Source: an uncultured bacterium | Lineage (GTDB): Bacteria; Actinomycetota; Acidimicrobiia; Spongiisociales; UBA5794 | Length of the DNA stretch: 64,000 nt | Assembly (NCBI GenBank): GCA_963801165.1 | Contig: CAWDDT010000010.1 | Location: forward strand, 64,001 to 128,000 | Direction of reading: 5' to 3' | Shown: in pieces, positions 38,165-45,593 of the stretch | How the letters are laid out: each line of letters opens with the position of its first letter | Position numbering within the stretch: the first letter of the stretch is position 1 | Translations under genes and position numbers: made by a program | The notes under the pieces: model-generated | Seen by the model: only the letters and a program-made list of their open reading frames with translations | Databases searched by the model: none | What the model was told of the DNA's origin: nothing

Positions 38165-41151
38165 GCGAAACCCGGTCCGCCCTCGGCCCACGCCGGGCAT
38201 ACCTGGCGAAGCGAGCAACGTTCACAGTGGGTGCCCGGTTTCGGTGTCCAATCCTCGGATCGGATGCCTTCGGCGGCCAGCTGCAGGCGAGCTTCGACAT
38301 GGCTGAGAAGACCCATGTCGAACTTGCGTGTGGTGACACCCCTGGTCCCGTGCATCGGGTACCAGAGCTCGGCCCCGACTACCGGCCCGTGTGCATCGAG
38401 ATCCGAGTCGCGGTCGACGGCAAGCGCATAGAAGCCAAGCTGCAGGGATTCAGCGGCTTCTGCGATCTGAACGGGGTGCTTGCTGGTCTTGTAGTCGACA
38501 ATGGTCAAACCACCTGGTCCGCTGTCGATTCGGTCGATGCGACCGGTCCATTTGATGCCACCGACCTCGGCCTCGACGGTTCGCTCGAGGTCGAGGGCGC
38601 GACGCTTCCTGGTGGGCCAATTCTCGTAGAGACGGATCAACCCGTCGTGACCACGGTTCAGCCAGGAGTCGGCAAACGGACGGCCCCCGTAGTCGTTGGG
38701 GTCGAATCGCTCCCCGAGCTCGGTGAGAGCCGCGTCCAGCGTGCTGTGCTCTCGCCCCTGGTCGCGGGCGGTGCGTTCCACCGTCTCGAGAACATCGTGG
38801 ATCAGCGTACCGAAGTCAGCGTGGAGCGACGTGTCGGATCCGACTTTGAGACGGCGCTCGAGGGCATACCGTCGCGGGCAGTCCTCATACATTTGTGCCT
38901 GCGAGGGGGAGAGCACCACCTGGTCACCAATCAGGCCGTCGTCGGGTCCCCGGTCCCGGACACCGTTGAAGTCGGCAGCGGGGCGCAGCCCCCACTCCTC
39001 GCCGATGGCGAGGACTCGAAGGGCGGCGAGACGTGCCGGTCGCGGCGCAGCCACATCGACCAGGCAGCGACGCAGCGCGGCTTCGGCTTCGTGAGCCGTG
39101 ACAGGGAGCCGGCCACCCTCCGCGGGATGCGTTGGAGGGCACACGCTCACCCGGCCGGGTGGTCGGCCCGCATCGACCCCCACCCGGGCGGCGATTGTGG
39201 TGAAGAAGCGGCTGGGGCGGCCGGGTGCCTCGTCGAGACCACGTGCGGTGGCGGTCCAGATGACCCGGCGTCGGGCGCGGGTCATCGCCGTGTACGCCAA
39301 CCGGCTCTCCTCGCGAAGCCGGAAAGTCCGGTACTCCGCGGTATCAGCGGGGACGTGGGGCAACAGGTGTCGTACGCCGAGCAGCGAGTCCCGCGTACGG
39401 AGATCGGGAAATACCCCGTCAACTGCGTCGGCGATGAAGACCACGTCGAGTTCCAGCCCTTTTGCCTGGTGAAGAGTGGTCAGCGTGAGATAGTCGCCCT
39501 CCGGTCGGCGGTAGCTGAGCAGCGGCTGGGCTTCGAAATCCTCGCTCTCGGCGAGGCGGCGGTACTCGAGAAGTGTTCCCTGTGGATTGCGCTCCTCCCA
39601 GCGAACGAGCACCTGGGCCAACGATCGCCACGCCGCTCGCTCCTCAGCAGCCGCGGGGTCGGCAATGAGGCTCTCGACGCCGGGCAGAGTGCTCCACAGT
39701 TGCCACAGTCCATCGACGGCGGGAACGCTGGTGGCCCACCCGGGATCCTCGAGGAGGTCGGCGAGCCGGGACCACCCGGGGAGGGTCTCCCGGATCGCAC
39801 GAGACCAGGATGCGCTGACCCTGGCCTCCCGCTCCAGCGATCGAAACGCGCCGATTGTCAACCCGACTCGCGATCCGAGAAGCACCCGCCGCATTGCATT
39901 CTCCGCGGCGGTCGGCCCGTCGCATCCCGAAGCCGCGACGGCGAGGTCGAGTAGGAAGCGGACTGCGGGCTGGTCGGTGAGCCGGCTACCCGGTAGCTCG
40001 TGCGGTATGTGGCGGCGCTCCAACGCCCGGGAGAGGTCGGCAAGGAGCCGGCGTTTGCTGCGGACGAACACGCCGATTCGGCGGTAGGGGATACCTTCTG
40101 TGAGGTGGAGCCGTTGCGCCTCGGCCGATATCCATTCCGCTTCCTCGACTTGCTGGTCGAACCGGTACGCATCCACGACTCCCCGACCGGGGGCCGGGTG
40201 CACGGTTCCGGTCGCACCGGGAAGATCGCCGGTGGTCACTGCCACTGCCGCATCGAGGATGGCGGCCGGTGTGCGAAACGAGGTCGTCAGCAAGAAGCGG
40301 ATGGCGGGGGTTTCGGACGAGCCGAAATCATCCTCGAACGCGGCGACGTTCTCGACCGTGGCGCCCCGAAAGCTGTATATCGATTGGTAGGGGTCGGCGG
40401 CGGCGAGCGTGTGGCTGCCACCGCGTTGGAGTGCCTGCAGCAGCCGGACCTGGGCCGTCGTCGTGTCCTGGTATTCGTCAACCAGCACGTAGGTCTCAGT
40501 GTGCGCCGCAGCGAGGACGCCCTCTTCGAGCAGCGCGACGGCAGTGGAGATGAGAGTGCCGTAGTCGATGCGCCCCAGCTTGCGCAGCGCCCGTTGGTAT
40601 GTCGCGAGAAACTCCGGCAAACCGCGCCAATCGGCGCGCTCGAAACGGGCGATGGACTCGGGTGTGTTCATCTGCTCGGCTGAGCGCAAAATGAAGTCGG
40701 TCACCTCACCGGCAAAAGTCCGTGTGCCGAGAAGCTCGGCGAAGGCAGGGGACCAGGCGCGGCGGTCATCTTCTACCAGCAGTTCGTGCATCAGCGACAC
40801 CTGCTCGGGACCGGTGAGTATCTGCGGGTTCTCGCCCCATCCAGCGGCGACGCTGTTGATCTCGACCAGACGCGCAGCATAGGAGTGGAAGGTGGCGACA
40901 TCGAGAGCGCCGAGCGTATGGGTGATGCTCTGTCGAATCCGGCTGCGAACCTCGGCAACGCCGCGTCGGGAGAACCCGAGGACGGTGATCTGCTCAGGTC
41001 GTACCCCGGCAGCCGTGAGCAGATGGGTGGCCCGGCGGACCAGAAACTCCGTCTTTCCGGTCCCCGGACCGCCGACTACGAGCTGTGGGCCTGCGATGTG
41101 GGCCACGGCCTCCGGCCAGCCGTCGGGGTCGATCGAGATGGGGTCGTTCAC
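38161..41151 (-). CDS. adnA: AdnA-type UvrD helicase + PD-(D/E)XK nuclease
   Basis: GGPGTGKT, VDEYQD, HQAKGLE, GRIDRID...VDYKTS, CxxC; GTG start 41151 overlaps the upstream stop. Confidence 0.82.
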   Translation of the reverse strand: MNDPISIDPDGWPEAVAHIAGPQLVVGGPGTGKTEFLVRRATHLLTAAGVRPEQITVLGFSRRGVAEVRSRIRQSITHTLGALDVATFHSYAARLVEINSVAAGWGENPQILTGPEQVSLMHELLVEDDRRAWSPAFAELLGTRTFAGEVTDFILRSAEQMNTPESIARFERADWRGLPEFLATYQRALRKLGRIDYGTLISTAVALLEEGVLAAAHTETYVLVDEYQDTTTAQVRLLQALQRGGSHTLAAADPYQSIYSFRGATVENVAAFEDDFGSSETPAIRFLLTTSFRTPAAILDAAVAVTTGDLPGATGTVHPAPGRGVVDAYRFDQQVEEAEWISAEAQRLHLTEGIPYRRIGVFVRSKRRLLADLSRALERRHIPHELPGSRLTDQPAVRFLLDLAVAASGCDGPTAAENAMRRVLLGSRVGLTIGAFRSLEREARVSASWSRAIRETLPGWSRLADLLEDPGWATSVPAVDGLWQLWSTLPGVESLIADPAAAEERAAWRSLAQVLVRWEERNPQGTLLEYRRLAESEDFEAQPLLSYRRPEGDYLTLTTLHQAKGLELDVVFIADAVDGVFPDLRTRDSLLGVRHLLPHVPADTAEYRTFRLREESRLAYTAMTRARRRVIWTATARGLDEAPGRPSRFFTTIAARVGVDAGRPPGRVSVCPPTHPAEGGRLPVTAHEAEAALRRCLVDVAAPRPARLAALRVLAIGEEWGLRPAADFNGVRDRGPDDGLIGDQVVLSPSQAQMYEDCPRRYALERRLKVGSDTSLHADFGTLIHDVLETVERTARDQGREHSTLDAALTELGERFDPNDYGGRPFADSWLNRGHDGLIRLYENWPTRKRRALDLERTVEAEVGGIKWTGRIDRIDSGPGGLTIVDYKTSKHPVQIAEAAESLQLGFYALAVDRDSDLDAHGPVVGAELWYPMHGTRGVTTRKFDMGLLSHVEARLQLAAEGIRSEDWTPKPGTHCERCSLRQVCPAWAEGGPGFA

Positions 41152-41966
41152 GACGTCGCGGGTTGGCCCGGATCGGTTGCAAAAGCCGGGCACCGATCCT
41201 GGAACTGGCACCAGTTGCACAGCTTGCCCGGTCTTGCGGGGAAGTCGTTGTTGATGATGGCCCGGTTTATGGCCGCCCAGAGTGCCTCGAGCTTGCGCCG
41301 GGTTGCGTCGAGTTGCTGGTCGCTAACCGGGATCTCGTACACCGTGGGCCGGCCCAGGTACATGAGCCGCAAACGTACCGGGGTGCGCCCGGTGCGCGCC
41401 CTGATGAGCAGCGCGTAGATCTTCAATGCGAAGAAGGCGGGAATGGCGTACCGCTCGGGTGGGGCCGAGCCGGTCTTGTAATCGGTGATGACCAGACCGT
41501 CCGGTTCCTCTTCCATCCGATCGAGAATGCCGCGGATGGTTATCTCGCCGAGCTCCTCGGTCATGTCGAGCTCCCGATCGACCGGATCAAACGAGGTTGG
41601 ATCCTCGATCACGAAGTAGTTGGCGAGCACCGACAGACTATCGATGCCCCAGGCTCGCTCCTCCTCGACGGTGTCGAAGAGACCGGGGAACTCCTCGTCG
41701 CGCAGCTCGACCCATGCCTTGCGAAACAGCTCGTAGAGCGTTTCCGGGGTGCGGTTCTTCGGGGCGAGATCGAACAGCCGCTGCAGGGCGAGGTGAGCGG
41801 TCGTACCCCGGGCCTGATACACGGTGGGGGGCACCTCGATCTTGTCGATTGCCTTGTACTTGAACAGAAGCGGGCACACTTTGAAGTCCCCGGCCCGCGA
41901 GGGAGACAGCGTTTCGAGGATCGGAGCCGCAATTGTCTGTGTCGTGGTGTGATTTGTAGCTGTCAT
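41148..41966 (-). CDS. RecB-family PD-(D/E)XK exonuclease (standalone)
   Basis: LSPSRAGDFKVCPL, RGILDRM...TDYKTG, LCNWCQFQDRCP; start ATG 41966. Confidence 0.85.
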   Translation of the reverse strand: MTATNHTTTQTIAAPILETLSPSRAGDFKVCPLLFKYKAIDKIEVPPTVYQARGTTAHLALQRLFDLAPKNRTPETLYELFRKAWVELRDEEFPGLFDTVEEERAWGIDSLSVLANYFVIEDPTSFDPVDRELDMTEELGEITIRGILDRMEEEPDGLVITDYKTGSAPPERYAIPAFFALKIYALLIRARTGRTPVRLRLMYLGRPTVYEIPVSDQQLDATRRKLEALWAAINRAIINNDFPARPGKLCNWCQFQDRCPAFATDPGQPATS

Positions 41967-42006
41967 CGCCTTTCGACTATACGCCGCGCCACCGACAAGA
42001 ACCACA

Positions 42007-42032
42007 CGCGTGTAGTTATCGCGTGTAGTTAT
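42007..42032. repeat. 13-bp duplication CGCGTGTAGTTAT x2
   Basis: Exact direct duplication. Confidence 0.85.
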
Positions 42033-42044
42033 CGACAGGGAGAT

Positions 42045-42119
42045 CGCGAAATATTTGCCGAATTCGCGAAAACGAACCAGCCATCCAACTTGACTGCACA
42101 AAGCGGTCGGGCGTACGTT
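42045..42119 (+). promoter_or_regulatory. Putative sigma70-type promoter of ncRNA-1 with tandem CGCGAAA upstream motifs
   Basis: CGCGAAA 42045 and 42065; TTGACT 42090; 18-nt spacer; TACGTT 42114. Confidence 0.7.
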
Positions 42120-42124
42120 ATCGG

Positions 42125-42876
42125 TCCTCGAGGCTCCGACCATGGCGGAGTGGTTCTCGGAAGGAAAGGGATTGGGAAACCGGCCCTCTCCGGCACCGGG
42201 AACAACGGGATGGATACATCCCGAAGGGCACCCGGTCCCCCGGCGGAACTCCGGTTCCGGCGGAACCGAGGGTCCACGTCCGAGAGGCTTCGGCCTCGAA
42301 GACAACAGGTTGAACGGGTTTCGGCCCGGGAAACCGACAGGGCTCCGGCTCTGTCACCCGCCCTGCTACGGCAGAGCAAACCGGGAGGGCTTCGGCCCGA
42401 CCAGAAGGCCTCGGAGGGTGAAATCCTCCGAAGCAACGGGCGGCCTTCGGGCCACCCGGTCCTCCGAGTGAGGCGCACCGCCGCTGCGGTTGGGACTACG
42501 GTCTCACCACAGCGGGCAGACGTAACACGAAGGTGGACGAAACGCCGAGGCAATCGGCGGGACGAGGGTTTCCTCGGTGAGGGCAACGCCCGATCCGAGA
42601 AGGCTGCCGGGTCAAACCGAGCGGCAAGCCCTCCGACCAAGGGTTGCAGCGGTTTCCCCTGGTGGGAGCTTCGGCGCCCGCTAGCGGAGACGGCACGGCC
42701 GGCTGTACCGGGCTTCGGTCCGGTGACGACCGGGCGGGCCGGTGGGTGTCCTAACGGCCATCTACAAAGCAGCGGCTGGAAGCGGCCCGACTCCTCACGG
42801 AGAAGGTGCCCGACCAGAAGCGAGGATCCCCGAGAGGGTGGCGACTCCGGTCAAAACTCCCTCGGGGTTTCCTTTT
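42125..42876 (+). ncRNA. Putative large structured non-coding RNA (about 750 nt), family not recognised
   Basis: At least 11 UNCG-capped hairpins on the + strand plus other stems; upstream promoter; terminal long stem followed by a T-run; no credible CDS. Confidence 0.8.
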
Positions 42877-43005
42877 GTCACGAGGTTTGTCACGAGGTTT
42901 GTCACGAGGTTTGTCACGAGGTTTGTCACGAGGTTTGTCGCGAGGTTTGTCGCGAGGTTGTCGCGAGGGTTGCCGCGGAGGTTGCCGCGGAGGGTTGTCG
43001 AGAGG
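42874..43005. repeat. 12-bp tandem repeat TTTGTC(A/G)CGAGG, about 11 copies, degenerating rightwards
   Basis: Five exact TTTGTCACGAGG, two TTTGTCGCGAGG, then diverged copies. Confidence 0.95.
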
Positions 43006-43022
43006 GCTCGAAGCCTGTCGTT

Positions 43023-43679
43023 TCAGGTACACCCATCGAGCGGCTGGAGCAGCGTCACGGTGTCGTTGTCGTCCGACCCGCTCAGCAGACCCCGGAAGCC
43101 GGCAGAGACGGCCCGAAACGACCACACATCGAGTACCGCGTCTCCCTCGACCACCATATCGGCGCCGAATGCACTGCGGAGCGCGGCGACGGTCGTTCCG
43201 AGCCCAACGCCCTGTTCGGTCGTCAGGTCTAGACCACGCGGATCGATGCCGCCCTCGTTCTCGGAGAAGTCGTAACCGTAGGTATACGTGTAGAAGTATC
43301 CACCGAGGTCGGGAGCGCCGTCGTCGATGAAGATGGTCACGAGGCTACCCCAGCCGATGGCCCGCATCGTCGAGCCGGGGCACGAGCCATAGGCGTTCGG
43401 CTCCGACGGTATCCAGCCGCTATCCAGATCGGGGCCACCGACGAGTGCGGCGATGTCGTCCACGACCGTGTCAGGAGCGAGCCCGAAGCTCACCTCGCCG
43501 AGACCGTCGGGGGAGAGGGCTAGCTTCACCAGCGGGGCCGGGACCGTCGTTGTCGAATCCTGCGCGGCTCCGCATCCAGTGAGAAGGACGCACATGAGCA
43601 TCGCCGCGACTCGACGTCCCGCCGCCGGTCGAGCCCGGGCTGCCCGGGTGCACCCGACGATCCGCTTCTCTCGAGCCAA
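43023..43679 (-). CDS. Hypothetical lipoprotein (start uncertain, possibly about 43601)
   Basis: LLTGC lipobox followed by an acidic globular domain. Confidence 0.65.
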   Translation of the reverse strand: MAREKRIVGCTRAARARPAAGRRVAAMLMCVLLTGCGAAQDSTTTVPAPLVKLALSPDGLGEVSFGLAPDTVVDDIAALVGGPDLDSGWIPSEPNAYGSCPGSTMRAIGWGSLVTIFIDDGAPDLGGYFYTYTYGYDFSENEGGIDPRGLDLTTEQGVGLGTTVAALRSAFGADMVVEGDAVLDVWSFRAVSAGFRGLLSGSDDNDTVTLLQPLDGCT

Positions 43680-43765
43680 CTAGTACCTCCGGCGAGGACA
43701 CTACACCGGGACCCGGAAGGTCCCCTGCGCACGGGCTCTGGGCCGGATCGGGACCCCGGGGCACA

Positions 43766-43807
43766 TGAGTTCGGTGAGTGAATTCGGCGAGTGAGTTCGG
43801 CGAGTGA
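43766..43807. repeat. 13-bp repeat TGA(G/A)TTCGG(T/C)GAG x3
   Basis: Units at 43766, 43779 and 43792. Confidence 0.85.
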
Positions 43808-43870
43808 TAAGGAGGATTCGGTCGACTATTCGCGCCTGATCCGGGTATCGGAGCGGCGCCACGATCGGGT

Positions 43871-43945
43871 CGCGAAACAAAGCGGGAAAGCGCGAAATCA
43901 AGACACGGTTTTGGCTTGACCGCGGCATGGGCTACGCACTAACTT
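43871..43945 (+). promoter_or_regulatory. Putative sigma70-type promoter of ncRNA-2, same architecture as the ncRNA-1 promoter
   Basis: CGCGAAA 43871 and 43891; TTGACC 43916; 18-nt spacer; TAACTT 43940. Confidence 0.7.
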
Positions 43946-43951
43946 GGCTTT

Positions 43952-44218
43952 AGTCGATGAGGCGGGAAACCGCAGCAGAGACTCCAGGCCTCGCAAGGGG
44001 TTCTGGGATCTGGACGAGTCACCGGGCCGCGAGGTCGGGTGGCGACACCGCAAGGAAAGTCCGGGGACGAGCCCCAGTGGTTCGGCCTCACGGGCTGCGA
44101 AGGATCGCTGATCGGGACTTCGGTCCTGAGAGGCATCTCGGTTGAGCCGCAAGGTTCCGACCGAGAAGAGAGCCCCGAGAGGGTCGACGCTTCGGCGAGA
44201 ACTTTCTCGGGGTTTCTC
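43952..44218 (+). ncRNA. Putative structured non-coding RNA (about 270 nt), family not recognised
   Basis: Five GNRA and three UUCG hairpins; 3' stem homologous to that of ncRNA-1; upstream promoter. Confidence 0.75.
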
Positions 44219-44336
44219 GCGTCCGTAGTGGGCCGGACGACCAAAAACGCCGGCATCTGGCTCAAGGAATCGAGCGATCCGAAAATCTGCAAGCGGTGAT
44301 TGCGCGCGGCCAGGTCGAACGTCGTATCATTGCGCC

Positions 44337-44969
44337 ATGGCTTTTCCAGAGAACATCCTCACGGAAGATGAGACGATCGTCAGTCAGTTTCGACCGCACT
44401 GGAGGATGCTCGCCATCCCTGTGCTGTGGTTTATCGCCGGCATTGTTGCCATAGTCCTCGTGTCGGTCTATTCCTGGCTCGACGACTATTCGATCATCCG
44501 CTGGATCCTGATCGCAGCGCTAGTGCTTGCTTTGTTCCCGCTGGTGGTAAGCCCCGTTCTCCGGTGGGTGTTCACGTCCTACGTTCTCACCAGCGAGCGG
44601 CTGATGACGAGGACCGGGATGATCGCTCGCAGCGGCATCGAGTTGCCGCTGGCCAGCATCAACGACGTGCGCTTTCACCAGACGGTTCTCGAGCGTGTGC
44701 TGAAGTCGGGCGACCTCGTAATCGAGTCGGCAGGTGAGAGCGGGCAGAGCAGGTTCACCGATATCCCGCGCCCTGAGGAGTTCCAATCGCTGCTGTACCG
44801 GACCCGGGAACAGCAGCAACACAACAGCGCCGTAGAGCAGTCGGCAAAGGCCGCCGAAGTGACCCGCGACCCAACCGAGGAGTTGGAGAGAGCTGCCCGA
44901 CTACGCGATGACGGGGTGCTCTCTGAGGAGGAGTTCCAAGCCATGAAGCAGCGCATCCTCGGGACGTAG
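44337..44969 (+). CDS. Bacterial PH-domain membrane protein with C-terminal SHOCT domain
   Basis: RPHW, YVLTSERL...INDVRFHQTVLER, GVLSEEEFQAMKQRIL. Confidence 0.8.
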   Translation: MAFPENILTEDETIVSQFRPHWRMLAIPVLWFIAGIVAIVLVSVYSWLDDYSIIRWILIAALVLALFPLVVSPVLRWVFTSYVLTSERLMTRTGMIARSGIELPLASINDVRFHQTVLERVLKSGDLVIESAGESGQSRFTDIPRPEEFQSLLYRTREQQQHNSAVEQSAKAAEVTRDPTEELERAARLRDDGVLSEEEFQAMKQRILGT

Positions 44970-45128
44970 CGCTGCCGAGCCCAAACCGGGTTCGGGCTAT
45001 TCGTGGTCACCCGCAACCTGTACATTGTCTCCAGGAGACTGCGGAGCACATGTCGTGGCCGCGTGCCGCGCCATCGCCGCGCGTGACCAGAACCGGCATC
45101 GCTCAGCAGACCAATAGGAGGACGATGC

Positions 45129-45593
45129 ATGTCTGCTGAAAAGCTTCGTGAGTACCTCCTGACCCGCGGTGTGCCCTACGAGGTGCACGAGCACCCTCTC
45201 GCCTTCACGACGTCCCGCGTCGCGGAAGTCGAGCACATTCCCGGCAAGGACATTGCCAAGCCGGTCATCCTCATGGCCGACGACCACTTCGTGATGGCAG
45301 TTGTCCCGGGCCACAAGCACGTCGATCTCAACAAGGCGAGGTCTGCCCTCGGCTGTGAGAGCGTGCGGCTGGCAGAGGAATCAGAGTTCGCCGCTGCGTT
45401 CGCCGACTGCGAGCGCGGTGCCGAGCCACCGCTCGGGCATCTCTACGGCATGGAGACCGTCGTTGATCTGCGTCTCGATGCACCAAGGATCACGTTCCGT
45501 GGTGGGAGCCACACCCAGACGATCACGATGGGGATGGAGGACTACAGGACGGCCGCAAACGCCGTCATGGGTGACGTCGCGGCCGGTCGCTGA
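45129..45593 (+). CDS. YbaK/ProX-like aminoacyl-tRNA editing domain protein
   Basis: IAKPVIL, DCERGAEPPLG, GGSHTQTI. Confidence 0.82.
   Translation: MSAEKLREYLLTRGVPYEVHEHPLAFTTSRVAEVEHIPGKDIAKPVILMADDHFVMAVVPGHKHVDLNKARSALGCESVRLAEESEFAAAFADCERGAEPPLGHLYGMETVVDLRLDAPRITFRGGSHTQTITMGMEDYRTAANAVMGDVAAGR

Follow-up and report, generated by a model that had tools for sequence, protein, structure and literature searches.

A stand-alone gene for a structured RNA in an uncultured acidimicrobiial genome belongs to an RNA family absent from Rfam

What is encoded between two protein genes by a run of short, tetraloop-capped hairpins in the genome of an uncultured bacterium of the class Acidimicrobiia? 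The hairpins lie at positions 43952-44218 of a 64,000-nucleotide (nt) stretch of contig CAWDDT010000010.1 (assembly GCA_963801165.1), hereafter the window, whose coordinates are used throughout unless a genome is named. The initial annotation of this DNA named the element ncRNA-2 and left it open whether it is an independent small RNA or a large cis-acting leader of the gene downstream. Here we report that 43952-44218 is a stand-alone gene, read from the plus strand, for an abundant, stable and highly structured noncoding RNA of ~265 nt. It is a member of an undescribed RNA family, without an entry in Rfam 15, that most genomes sampled from one order of Acidimicrobiia (presumably the Acidimicrobiales) contain. 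Members of the class are widespread in soils, sediments and waters and are mostly uncultured, and no published RNA biology was found for the order; a literature search, to which most subscription journals were out of reach, returned no description of this RNA family.

A conserved transcription unit with a covarying fold

The sequence of 43952-44218 agreed with the earlier reading, and a BLAST comparison with 60 related genomes and the own genome gave full-length ncRNA-2 matches in all 14 same-genus genomes (74-83% identity) and no further copies elsewhere in the own genome. In this and all later tallies the relatives are not phylogenetically independent, and two genomes that are unpublished (G039 and G050) contribute to counts but carry no claim. 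In the alignment of the 15 genus sequences, conservation begins at a TAnnnT hexamer and ends just past a U-tract. The hexamer is the -10 element (TAACTT, 43940-45) of a promoter at 43916..43945, with a -35 element TTGACC (43916-21) and an 18-nt spacer. A promoter had been proposed in front of the RNA, and it is conserved in 15/15 genus sequences: the -35 reads TTGACC in 14 (TTGCCG in the remaining one), and TAnnnT follows 17-18 nt downstream in all. From the promoter spacing, transcription is predicted to start at ~43952/43953. A conserved block with the motif CGCGAAA precedes the -35 in the genus alignment; in the window the motif is read twice, at 43871-77 and 43891-97, 20 nt from start to start. 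The long terminal stem that had been noted at the other end is the hairpin of a terminator module at 44167-44219. A simple sigma-70/terminator scan listed neither the promoter nor the terminator, the latter because the scan demands five T in eight positions and the U-tract here is UUUCUC; both were identified by conservation instead. The transcript is thus placed at 43952..44218 (+, ~265 nt) by conservation from the -10 to the U-tract, by its fold and by exact matches in RNA data.

The fold of the plus strand had a minimum free energy of -146.9 kcal/mol compared with -121.1 +/- 5.6 kcal/mol in 200 dinucleotide shuffles (z -4.60, none as good), as against a z of -0.77 for the reverse strand, so that the structure is strand-specific and more than expected by chance. 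RNAalifold on the genus alignment returned 85-88 pairs in 11 local helices, with no rod closing the 5' on the 3' end. In the trimmed alignment of the 15 sequences, standard pairs made up 97.6% of 1274 pair cells, and compensatory changes were found in 20 of the 85 pairs compared with 9.9 +/- 1.9 in column shuffles, none of 500 of which reached 20; a control in which the pairing partners were slid by 1-3 columns gave 2-11 double-changed pairs. Ten of the 85 consensus pairs are mostly G.U or U.G, three of them in 15/15 sequences. Such pairs would be A.C mismatches on the opposite strand, which fits an RNA read from the plus strand only.

The RNA is organized as eight hairpins or helices (H1 to H7 and the terminator hairpin), mostly capped by GNRA or UUCG loops. 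H1 (43953..43982; ten pairs, two of them compensatory) has an internal loop and a GAAA loop at 43966-69, and one member of the genus (G012) carries an extra 21-nt GAAA-capped hairpin right after it. H2 (43988..44001; five pairs, two compensatory) is closed by a GCAA loop at 43993-96. A central multi-helix junction (44007..44106), itself closed by GAUCU/GGAUC, contains H3 (44020-41, GCGA loop 44029-32, three compensatory pairs), H4 (44047-56, GCAA loop 44050-53) and H5 (44059-95), which is near-invariant in the genus, with a pentaloop CCAGU at 44074-78 and 8 of 14 pairs that never vary. H6 (44108..44134, UUCG loop 44119-22) has ten pairs, five of them compensatory, and is kept in family- and order-level matches; H7 (44137..44165, GCAA loop 44149-52), with 4 compensatory changes among 11 pairs, persists in order-level matches. 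Of the eight tetraloops originally proposed, seven cap covariation-supported helices, while the supposed TTCG loop at 44081 lies in the 3' arm of H5.

Expression was examined in assembled public sequencing runs. Part of 42000-44400 is contained in 20 runs, nine of which are salt-marsh metatranscriptomes, and four runs were compared over 41500-45100. Exact ncRNA-2 contigs were present in three of these four: X11 (43964-44181, depth 265), X12 (43966-44172, depth 686) and X15 (43963-44180, depth 609). Discrete contigs thus run from 43963/43966 to 44172/44181. The fourth run, X20, had no exact ncRNA-2 contig; all it yielded was 37 nt from a relative. Related variants that show 4-6 differences from ncRNA-2 reached depths of 302-1960. 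Relative to the predicted transcript, the contigs lack ~10 nt at the 5' end and, at the 3' end, reach only to the foot of the terminator hairpin, as is usual for random-primed libraries; in X12 and X15 the letters abutting both contig ends resemble sequencing adapters. In all four runs the depth was 0 in the bins 41500-42104 and 42952-43919, although uncovered bins and contig depths are weak evidence by the mapping tool's own caveats. Still, these silent flanks show that the metatranscriptome signal comes from RNA and not from DNA. Together with a second RNA gene upstream, ncRNA-1 (42045..42881), ncRNA-2 is among the few features of this organism that are visible in salt-marsh metatranscriptomes, far above the neighboring mRNAs.

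A terminator-defined RNA family and its paired boxes

The terminator module of ncRNA-2 consists of a 17-pair hairpin with an A/G-rich flank followed by the U-tract UUUCUC (44213-18). Its 5' arm CCCCGAGAGGG (44173-83) is separated by an internal loop from an inner UUCG hairpin (44189-96, loop 44191-94), which covaries, and the 3' arm CUUUCUCGGGG occupies 44202-12. The last ~60 nt of ncRNA-2 match the end of ncRNA-1 and, in 48/61 relatives, one to three nearby places. Alignment of 29 such modules revealed an invariant CCCCGAG/CUCGGGG stem of seven pairs, an invariant G.U, a purine-rich internal loop, a covarying YUCG inner hairpin and a U-tract that can pair with the A/G-rich 5' flank; the core pairs and the one G.U are invariant in 29/29 sequences and again in 31/31 sequences of a second alignment. 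A covariance model of the module built from the 29-module alignment (R1) scored the ncRNA-2 terminator at 78.4 bits (E 1e-17). In the own genome only the ends of the two RNAs gave strong matches (78.4 and 69.8 bits). R1 matched 35/36 sampled genomes of the window's order and, outside it, gave only four weak matches among 114 other genomes of the class. Three weak matches (G133, G173 and G115) were set aside as ordinary terminators, as they had neither the boxes nor a PD-(D/E)XK neighbor in the stretch examined.

The signature of the family is the pair of CGCGAAA boxes and the terminator module CCCCGAGAGGG...CUCGGGGUUU, which together frame bodies of variable length. A full-length covariance model (R2) matched 121/151 genomes of the order, often with two and up to six matches per genome, in tandem. 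The main gap in the R2 matches is family f10 (2/18 genomes), in which the PD-(D/E)XK gene adjoins just one RNA gene, equipped with the same box pair and with a shorter form of the terminator. In relatives of the same family as the window (G255, G016, G018 and G034), H2, the junction, H6 and H7 are retained along with the terminator; in more distant members, what is retained is mainly H6, H7 and the terminator, or the body is a different one of ~150-470 nt. In the order-wide alignment 92.8% of the pair positions were paired and 74 pairs showed double changes; as that alignment was fitted to the model, these values lean towards it. The gene order is shared as well: across the order, one to six tandem RNA genes lie between a PD-(D/E)XK nuclease gene, which heads an AdnAB-like helicase-nuclease operon on the minus strand, and, usually, a bPH_2 gene. 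In the window, the plus-strand RNA region is flanked by the PD-(D/E)XK nuclease gene, a gene for a protein of 218 amino acids (aa) without a Pfam match and a bPH_2+SHOCT gene. ncRNA-2 itself thus combines a box pair 20 nt apart (20-21 nt in the family) before the -35 and -10 elements, the terminator module and the PD-(D/E)XK/AdnAB-like neighborhood. Box pair and conserved terminator together make a clear signature by which members of the family are easy to annotate in metagenome-assembled genomes.

Tandem arrays of three to six RNA genes were seen at L024 (G060:C69), L047 (G256) and L049 (G273), with some copies identical. The array units measure 693 nt in G060 and hold ~160-nt RNAs in G273, and each has its own boxes, promoter and terminator. 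Another of the weak R1 matches marks a further RNA in another order of the class, in G065 (L113, G065:C77:46000-48400, minus strand): ~290 nt long, it has four hairpins with GGCAAC loops and a similar terminator, lies directly upstream of a PD-(D/E)XK gene and co-directional with it, and is without CGCGAAA boxes. It looks like a true relative of the family, and the association of RNA and nuclease may be older than the order.

The boxes proved a second constant of the family. An exact CGCGAAA-N13/14-CGCGAAA pair lies upstream of 83 of the 92 distinct testable terminator modules outside the window, the distance from the first box to the module end being 186-932 nt (median 348). The pair was found in 58/61 genomes, compared with one match in total for a reversed control pattern. 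CGCGAAA itself occurs at 0.055/kb in the own genome (4.55 Mb), and the exact pair only four times: at ncRNA-1, at ncRNA-2, 264 nt before dnaA (pair at G000:C5:497824-497850, gene at C5:498088-499539) and before the gene of an uncharacterized 269-aa protein (G000:C9:406036-406062), a site conserved in the genus. For the dnaA and C9 loci, Rfam returned nothing beyond weak chance matches. Comparison of coordinates with those from a DnaA search placed a pair ~240-410 nt before the dnaA match in at least 13 of the 15 genus genomes and in at least 14 further genomes of family f1. Among box-pair loci (L101, L104, L105 and L108), the pair also precedes a class II ribonucleotide reductase gene in G016 and, in G180, a gene that encodes a protein with a 5'-nucleotidase C-terminal domain; Pfam confirmed nrdJ in G016 and dnaA in G000, G016 and G180. 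The boxes look like the mark of a small replication and nucleotide regulon under one regulator. Two direct repeats with a spacing of two helical turns, placed shortly before a -35, would suit an activator site. A box common to the promoters of dnaA and of the RNAs offers a direct handle on a transcription factor and on a regulon tied to replication.

Comparison with known families gave no assignment. The whole window had no Rfam 15 match at the gathering threshold at ncRNA-2 or anywhere else; at E up to 10, region 41000-45500 gave four weak chance matches, none of them inside ncRNA-2, and nine homologous loci searched at E up to 1 gave one chance microRNA match. Several known RNAs had been named as possible identities. 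The RNase P model (RF00010) did not match ncRNA-2, and the RNase P RNA of the genome lies on another contig (C6:602542-602922, 267.9 bits). The raiA motif model (RF03072) matched neither the region (E up to 10) nor the own genome, though it matched no control genome either, so that absence from the own genome is not established by it. The 6S model (RF00013) likewise found nothing, either in the region or in a search of the own genome with E up to 1; for this phylum the model is weak, with matches in only 5 of 14 control genomes, and as it also misses the Corynebacterium control its silence says little.

Proposed function and competing explanations

What might such an RNA do? In the reading that we favor, to which we give about even odds as a whole (roughly 0.55 for its three parts jointly), the RNA acts in trans, its 3' hairpin serves as a termination, stability and docking element, and its output is tied to the dnaA-linked box regulon. 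Most likely the RNA would bind or sequester a protein. The invariant 3' hairpin would then combine the roles of terminator, 3'-end protection and docking site, since the invariance of both arms and of the G.U across the order is not needed for termination alone, while the hairpin body, which evolves fast, would add bulk or make secondary contacts. A factor reading the paired CGCGAAA boxes would set RNA synthesis, and the occurrence of the same box pair at dnaA, ribonucleotide reductase and the 5'-nucleotidase-domain gene would link RNA output to replication and nucleotide supply. To our knowledge, terminator binders of the Hfq/ProQ type are absent from this phylum, and we know of no general small RNA (sRNA) chaperone in it; the order-wide invariant hairpin is therefore of interest as a testable candidate docking site for an RNA-binding protein. 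A more specific proposal, that these RNAs, made in very large amounts, are the RNA arm of a replication-linked Acidimicrobiales regulon in which one factor reads the box pairs at dnaA, at ribonucleotide reductase and at the RNA genes, and that their invariant 3' hairpin docks an RNA-binding protein that stands in for Hfq/ProQ, thereby tuning replication, repair or growth state, is speculative and on balance rather unlikely. If true, it would add to a large lineage, most of it uncultured, a new regulatory RNA class together with a new protein that partners it; RNAs of this family acting as sponges or as regulators of replication and repair would form a new class alongside 6S, Ms1 and raiA.

Several points weigh against the favored reading. 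The functional half of it (protein partner, trans target and phenotype) is an inference. The body of the RNA diverges fast outside the genus, so that the case for one family is carried mainly by promoter, terminator and synteny. The conserved terminator could in part reflect insulation of a neighboring promoter, and instead of binding a factor the CGCGAAA boxes could act as phased A-tracts or UP-like elements. Among the matches listed, the exact pair at dnaA occurs outside family f1 only in G180. The sequencing runs were chosen for containing this stretch, and their contigs give no strand, exact ends or true level; the contig ends may also leave room for a processed form without the terminator hairpin.

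One alternative is a cis-acting role, in which the RNA would be a leader or attenuator and its conserved hairpin the expression platform for the gene downstream. The PH-domain gene noted earlier is confirmed as a bPH_2 (PF03703, E 9.9e-17) and SHOCT gene (44337-44969, plus strand, 210 aa); ncRNA-2 is co-oriented with it and ends 118 nt before it, the adjacency is kept at many loci of the order, and UCUCGG in the 5' arm of H7 is complementary to CCGAGA in the terminator arm, which would in principle allow an alternative pairing. However, the gene has a -10-like element of its own, TATCAT at 44325-30, 6 nt before the ATG at 44337 and outside the RNA. A TAnnnT hexamer lies 5-8 nt before the bPH_2 ATG in 41/44 distinct loci, compared with a chance expectation that we estimate at ~6%, which leaves no room for a Shine-Dalgarno sequence, let alone for a leader. 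With TAnnnT so near the ATG, the bPH_2 transcript is probably a leaderless mRNA with its own promoter after the RNA terminator. The RNA contigs end at the terminator, and bPH_2 contigs, found in two runs, reach depths of only 2.3-3.6, ~100-fold lower. The pairing of H7 with the terminator shows no covariation: in 3/15 genus sequences a G to A change in the H7 arm is compensated inside H7 and not in the invariant terminator arm. The supposed platform is the most conserved part and the supposed sensor the least, the reverse of riboswitches; tandem copies each have their own promoter; and in family f10 and in G065 the RNA does not adjoin bPH_2. Taken together, the -10 of bPH_2, the stop of the contigs, the tandem promoters, the f10 and G065 arrangements and the lack of covariation for an alternative pairing make a cis role highly improbable. 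Of the two options first offered, the independent RNA is thus the one upheld: the gene has a conserved promoter and terminator to itself, its helices covary, and its contigs are discrete and abundant. Even less credit is due to the view that there is no functional RNA here at all, and that the signal stems from a gene for a small protein, from repeated or mobile DNA, or from transcriptional noise at a strong promoter. Table-11 open reading frames of 55-117 aa do overlap the region on both strands, and copy number differs between genomes, but the frequent 1-2-nt indels leave no frame intact, on which ground we discard a protein-coding reading; nor is the ATG at 43957 conserved. Substitutions follow base pairing, the position is syntenic across the order, and the own genome has just two copies of the module, both at this locus. 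A mobile or phage origin was likewise rejected, as the module pattern had 0 matches in viral contigs and BLAST found no further copies in the own genome. We hold this view to be extremely unlikely.

The two remaining alternatives accept a trans-acting RNA and differ in how it works. Several sRNA families have their own promoter and terminator and tandem paralogues, as this one has, and a conserved single-stranded segment might pair with mRNAs, for example of replication or repair genes, with body and terminator only stabilizing the molecule. Within the genus there are conserved unpaired purine-rich stretches in junctions, such as GGAAGGG and GAGAAGG, that would suit such a role. Yet nearly all of the RNA is in helices (85 pairs in ~265 nt), the unpaired stretches are short and not conserved past the genus, and order-wide only the terminator hairpin is conserved in sequence, so base pairing with mRNAs seems quite unlikely as the mode of action. 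The other alternative is that ncRNA-2 does for this order what 6S or Ms1 does elsewhere, binding RNA polymerase as an abundant RNA and buffering transcription over the growth phases. It is plentiful in situ and a single-gene unit, its size is near the 304 nt of Ms1, it belongs to the same phylum, Actinomycetota, and its own genome has no RF00013 match, a silence weakened by the failure of that model on the Corynebacterium control. According to the portion of the source available, Ms1 has a sigma-70-type promoter and a Rho-independent terminator in a single-gene unit, and Ms1 and 6S form a long hairpin with a central bubble that is needed for RNA polymerase binding (PMC4191392); in the accessible part of a second source, Ms1 occurs in Actinomycetota and is flanked by a gene for a HAD-IB hydrolase or 'inhibition of morphological differentiation' protein and by an oxidoreductase gene (PMC9130861). 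ncRNA-2 shares with the Ms1 RNA of Actinomycetia (MTS2823) and with 6S the character of an abundant, stand-alone ~300-nt RNA with its own promoter and terminator, but its 15-sequence consensus is a chain of eight local, covariation-backed helices with one junction and no long rod or central bubble, and its neighbors are the PD-(D/E)XK nuclease, 218-aa protein and bPH_2+SHOCT genes instead of those reported for Ms1. Paired boxes, a conserved terminator sequence and tandem copies are not described for Ms1 in the portions of these two sources that were available (PMC4191392, PMC9130861). On these grounds an RNA polymerase-binding role of the 6S/Ms1 kind appears distinctly improbable.

In gene organization, the nearest analogues of ncRNA-2 are the CsrB and RsmX-Y-Z sponge RNAs, as generally described: these vary in length, consist of a series of hairpins with a Rho-independent terminator, differ in paralogue number, sometimes in tandem, and have promoters that need an upstream activator site. 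They carry repeated protein-binding GGA motifs in their loops, whereas ncRNA-2 has no repeated loop motif: its loops are generic stable tetraloops (GCAA, GAAA, UUCG), and its only sequence-conserved element is the single 3' hairpin. The large RNAs OLE, GOLLD, ROOL and HEARO are also tetraloop-rich, covarying, highly expressed in environmental RNA and lineage-restricted, with a conserved core; ncRNA-2 is much smaller and its body is conserved only within the genus or family. The raiA RNA is, in the part of the source available, a structured RNA of ~200 nt with its own single-copy gene, of unknown function, found in Actinomycetota including Acidimicrobiia, typically without terminator stems and judged not to be cis-regulatory (PMC10861870). 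Like ncRNA-2 it is thus a structured, non-cis-regulatory RNA with its own gene, but the family of ncRNA-2 is terminator-defined and often multi-copy.

The upstream RNA gene and its surroundings

The second RNA gene, ncRNA-1 (42045..42881, plus strand), had been regarded as a sibling of ncRNA-2, which holds for its ends and not for its body. It has boxes at 42045-51 and 42065-71, a -35 TTGACT (42090-95), an 18-nt spacer, a -10 TACGTT (42114-19) and, at 42810-42881, the same terminator module as ncRNA-2. Its hairpin-rich body of ~700-750 nt is unrelated: the full-length model R2 matches ncRNA-1 only at model positions 222-272, so that as a relative of ncRNA-2 the body was discarded, the terminator alone matching, and by BLAST the body is found in the genus only (13/14) apart from one 29-nt match. 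RNA contigs of ncRNA-1 (571-710 nt) were present in all four runs, from 42134/42181 to 42737/42831, at depths of 72-1755. At 42224 the window has A, whereas RNA contigs from each of the four runs show G, over the whole depth in X12 and X15 and over part of it in X11 and X20, which could be strain variation or editing. Contigs from relatives skip or replace 120-153 nt of ncRNA-1 (42227-42433), the joints being 42227>42381 and 42312>42433, with 140 other letters between; variants with different inserted hairpins thus co-occur in the same samples.

The DNA around the two RNA genes shows some minor features. On the minus strand, 9 nt before the start codon of the PD-(D/E)XK gene (gene start 41966), the sequence TTGTCGGTG-N8-TATAGT at 41972-41995 resembles the mycobacterial RecA-independent DNA-damage promoter; a strict regular expression matched only 8/50 distinct loci, and nothing is built on it here. 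The DNA between the two RNA genes varies from 1.3 to 5.8 kb within the genus, and there may therefore be an insertion hot spot. Short tandem repeats occur at three places: CGCGTGTAGTTAT (2.2 copies, 42007-42034) between the start of the PD-(D/E)XK gene and the ncRNA-1 boxes, TGAGTTCGGCGAG (3.2 copies, 43766-43807) ~65 nt upstream of the ncRNA-2 boxes, and a 12-nt repeat, TTTGTCACGAGG / TTTGTCGCGAGG, of which ~11 copies (42874-43005) follow directly after the ncRNA-1 terminator.

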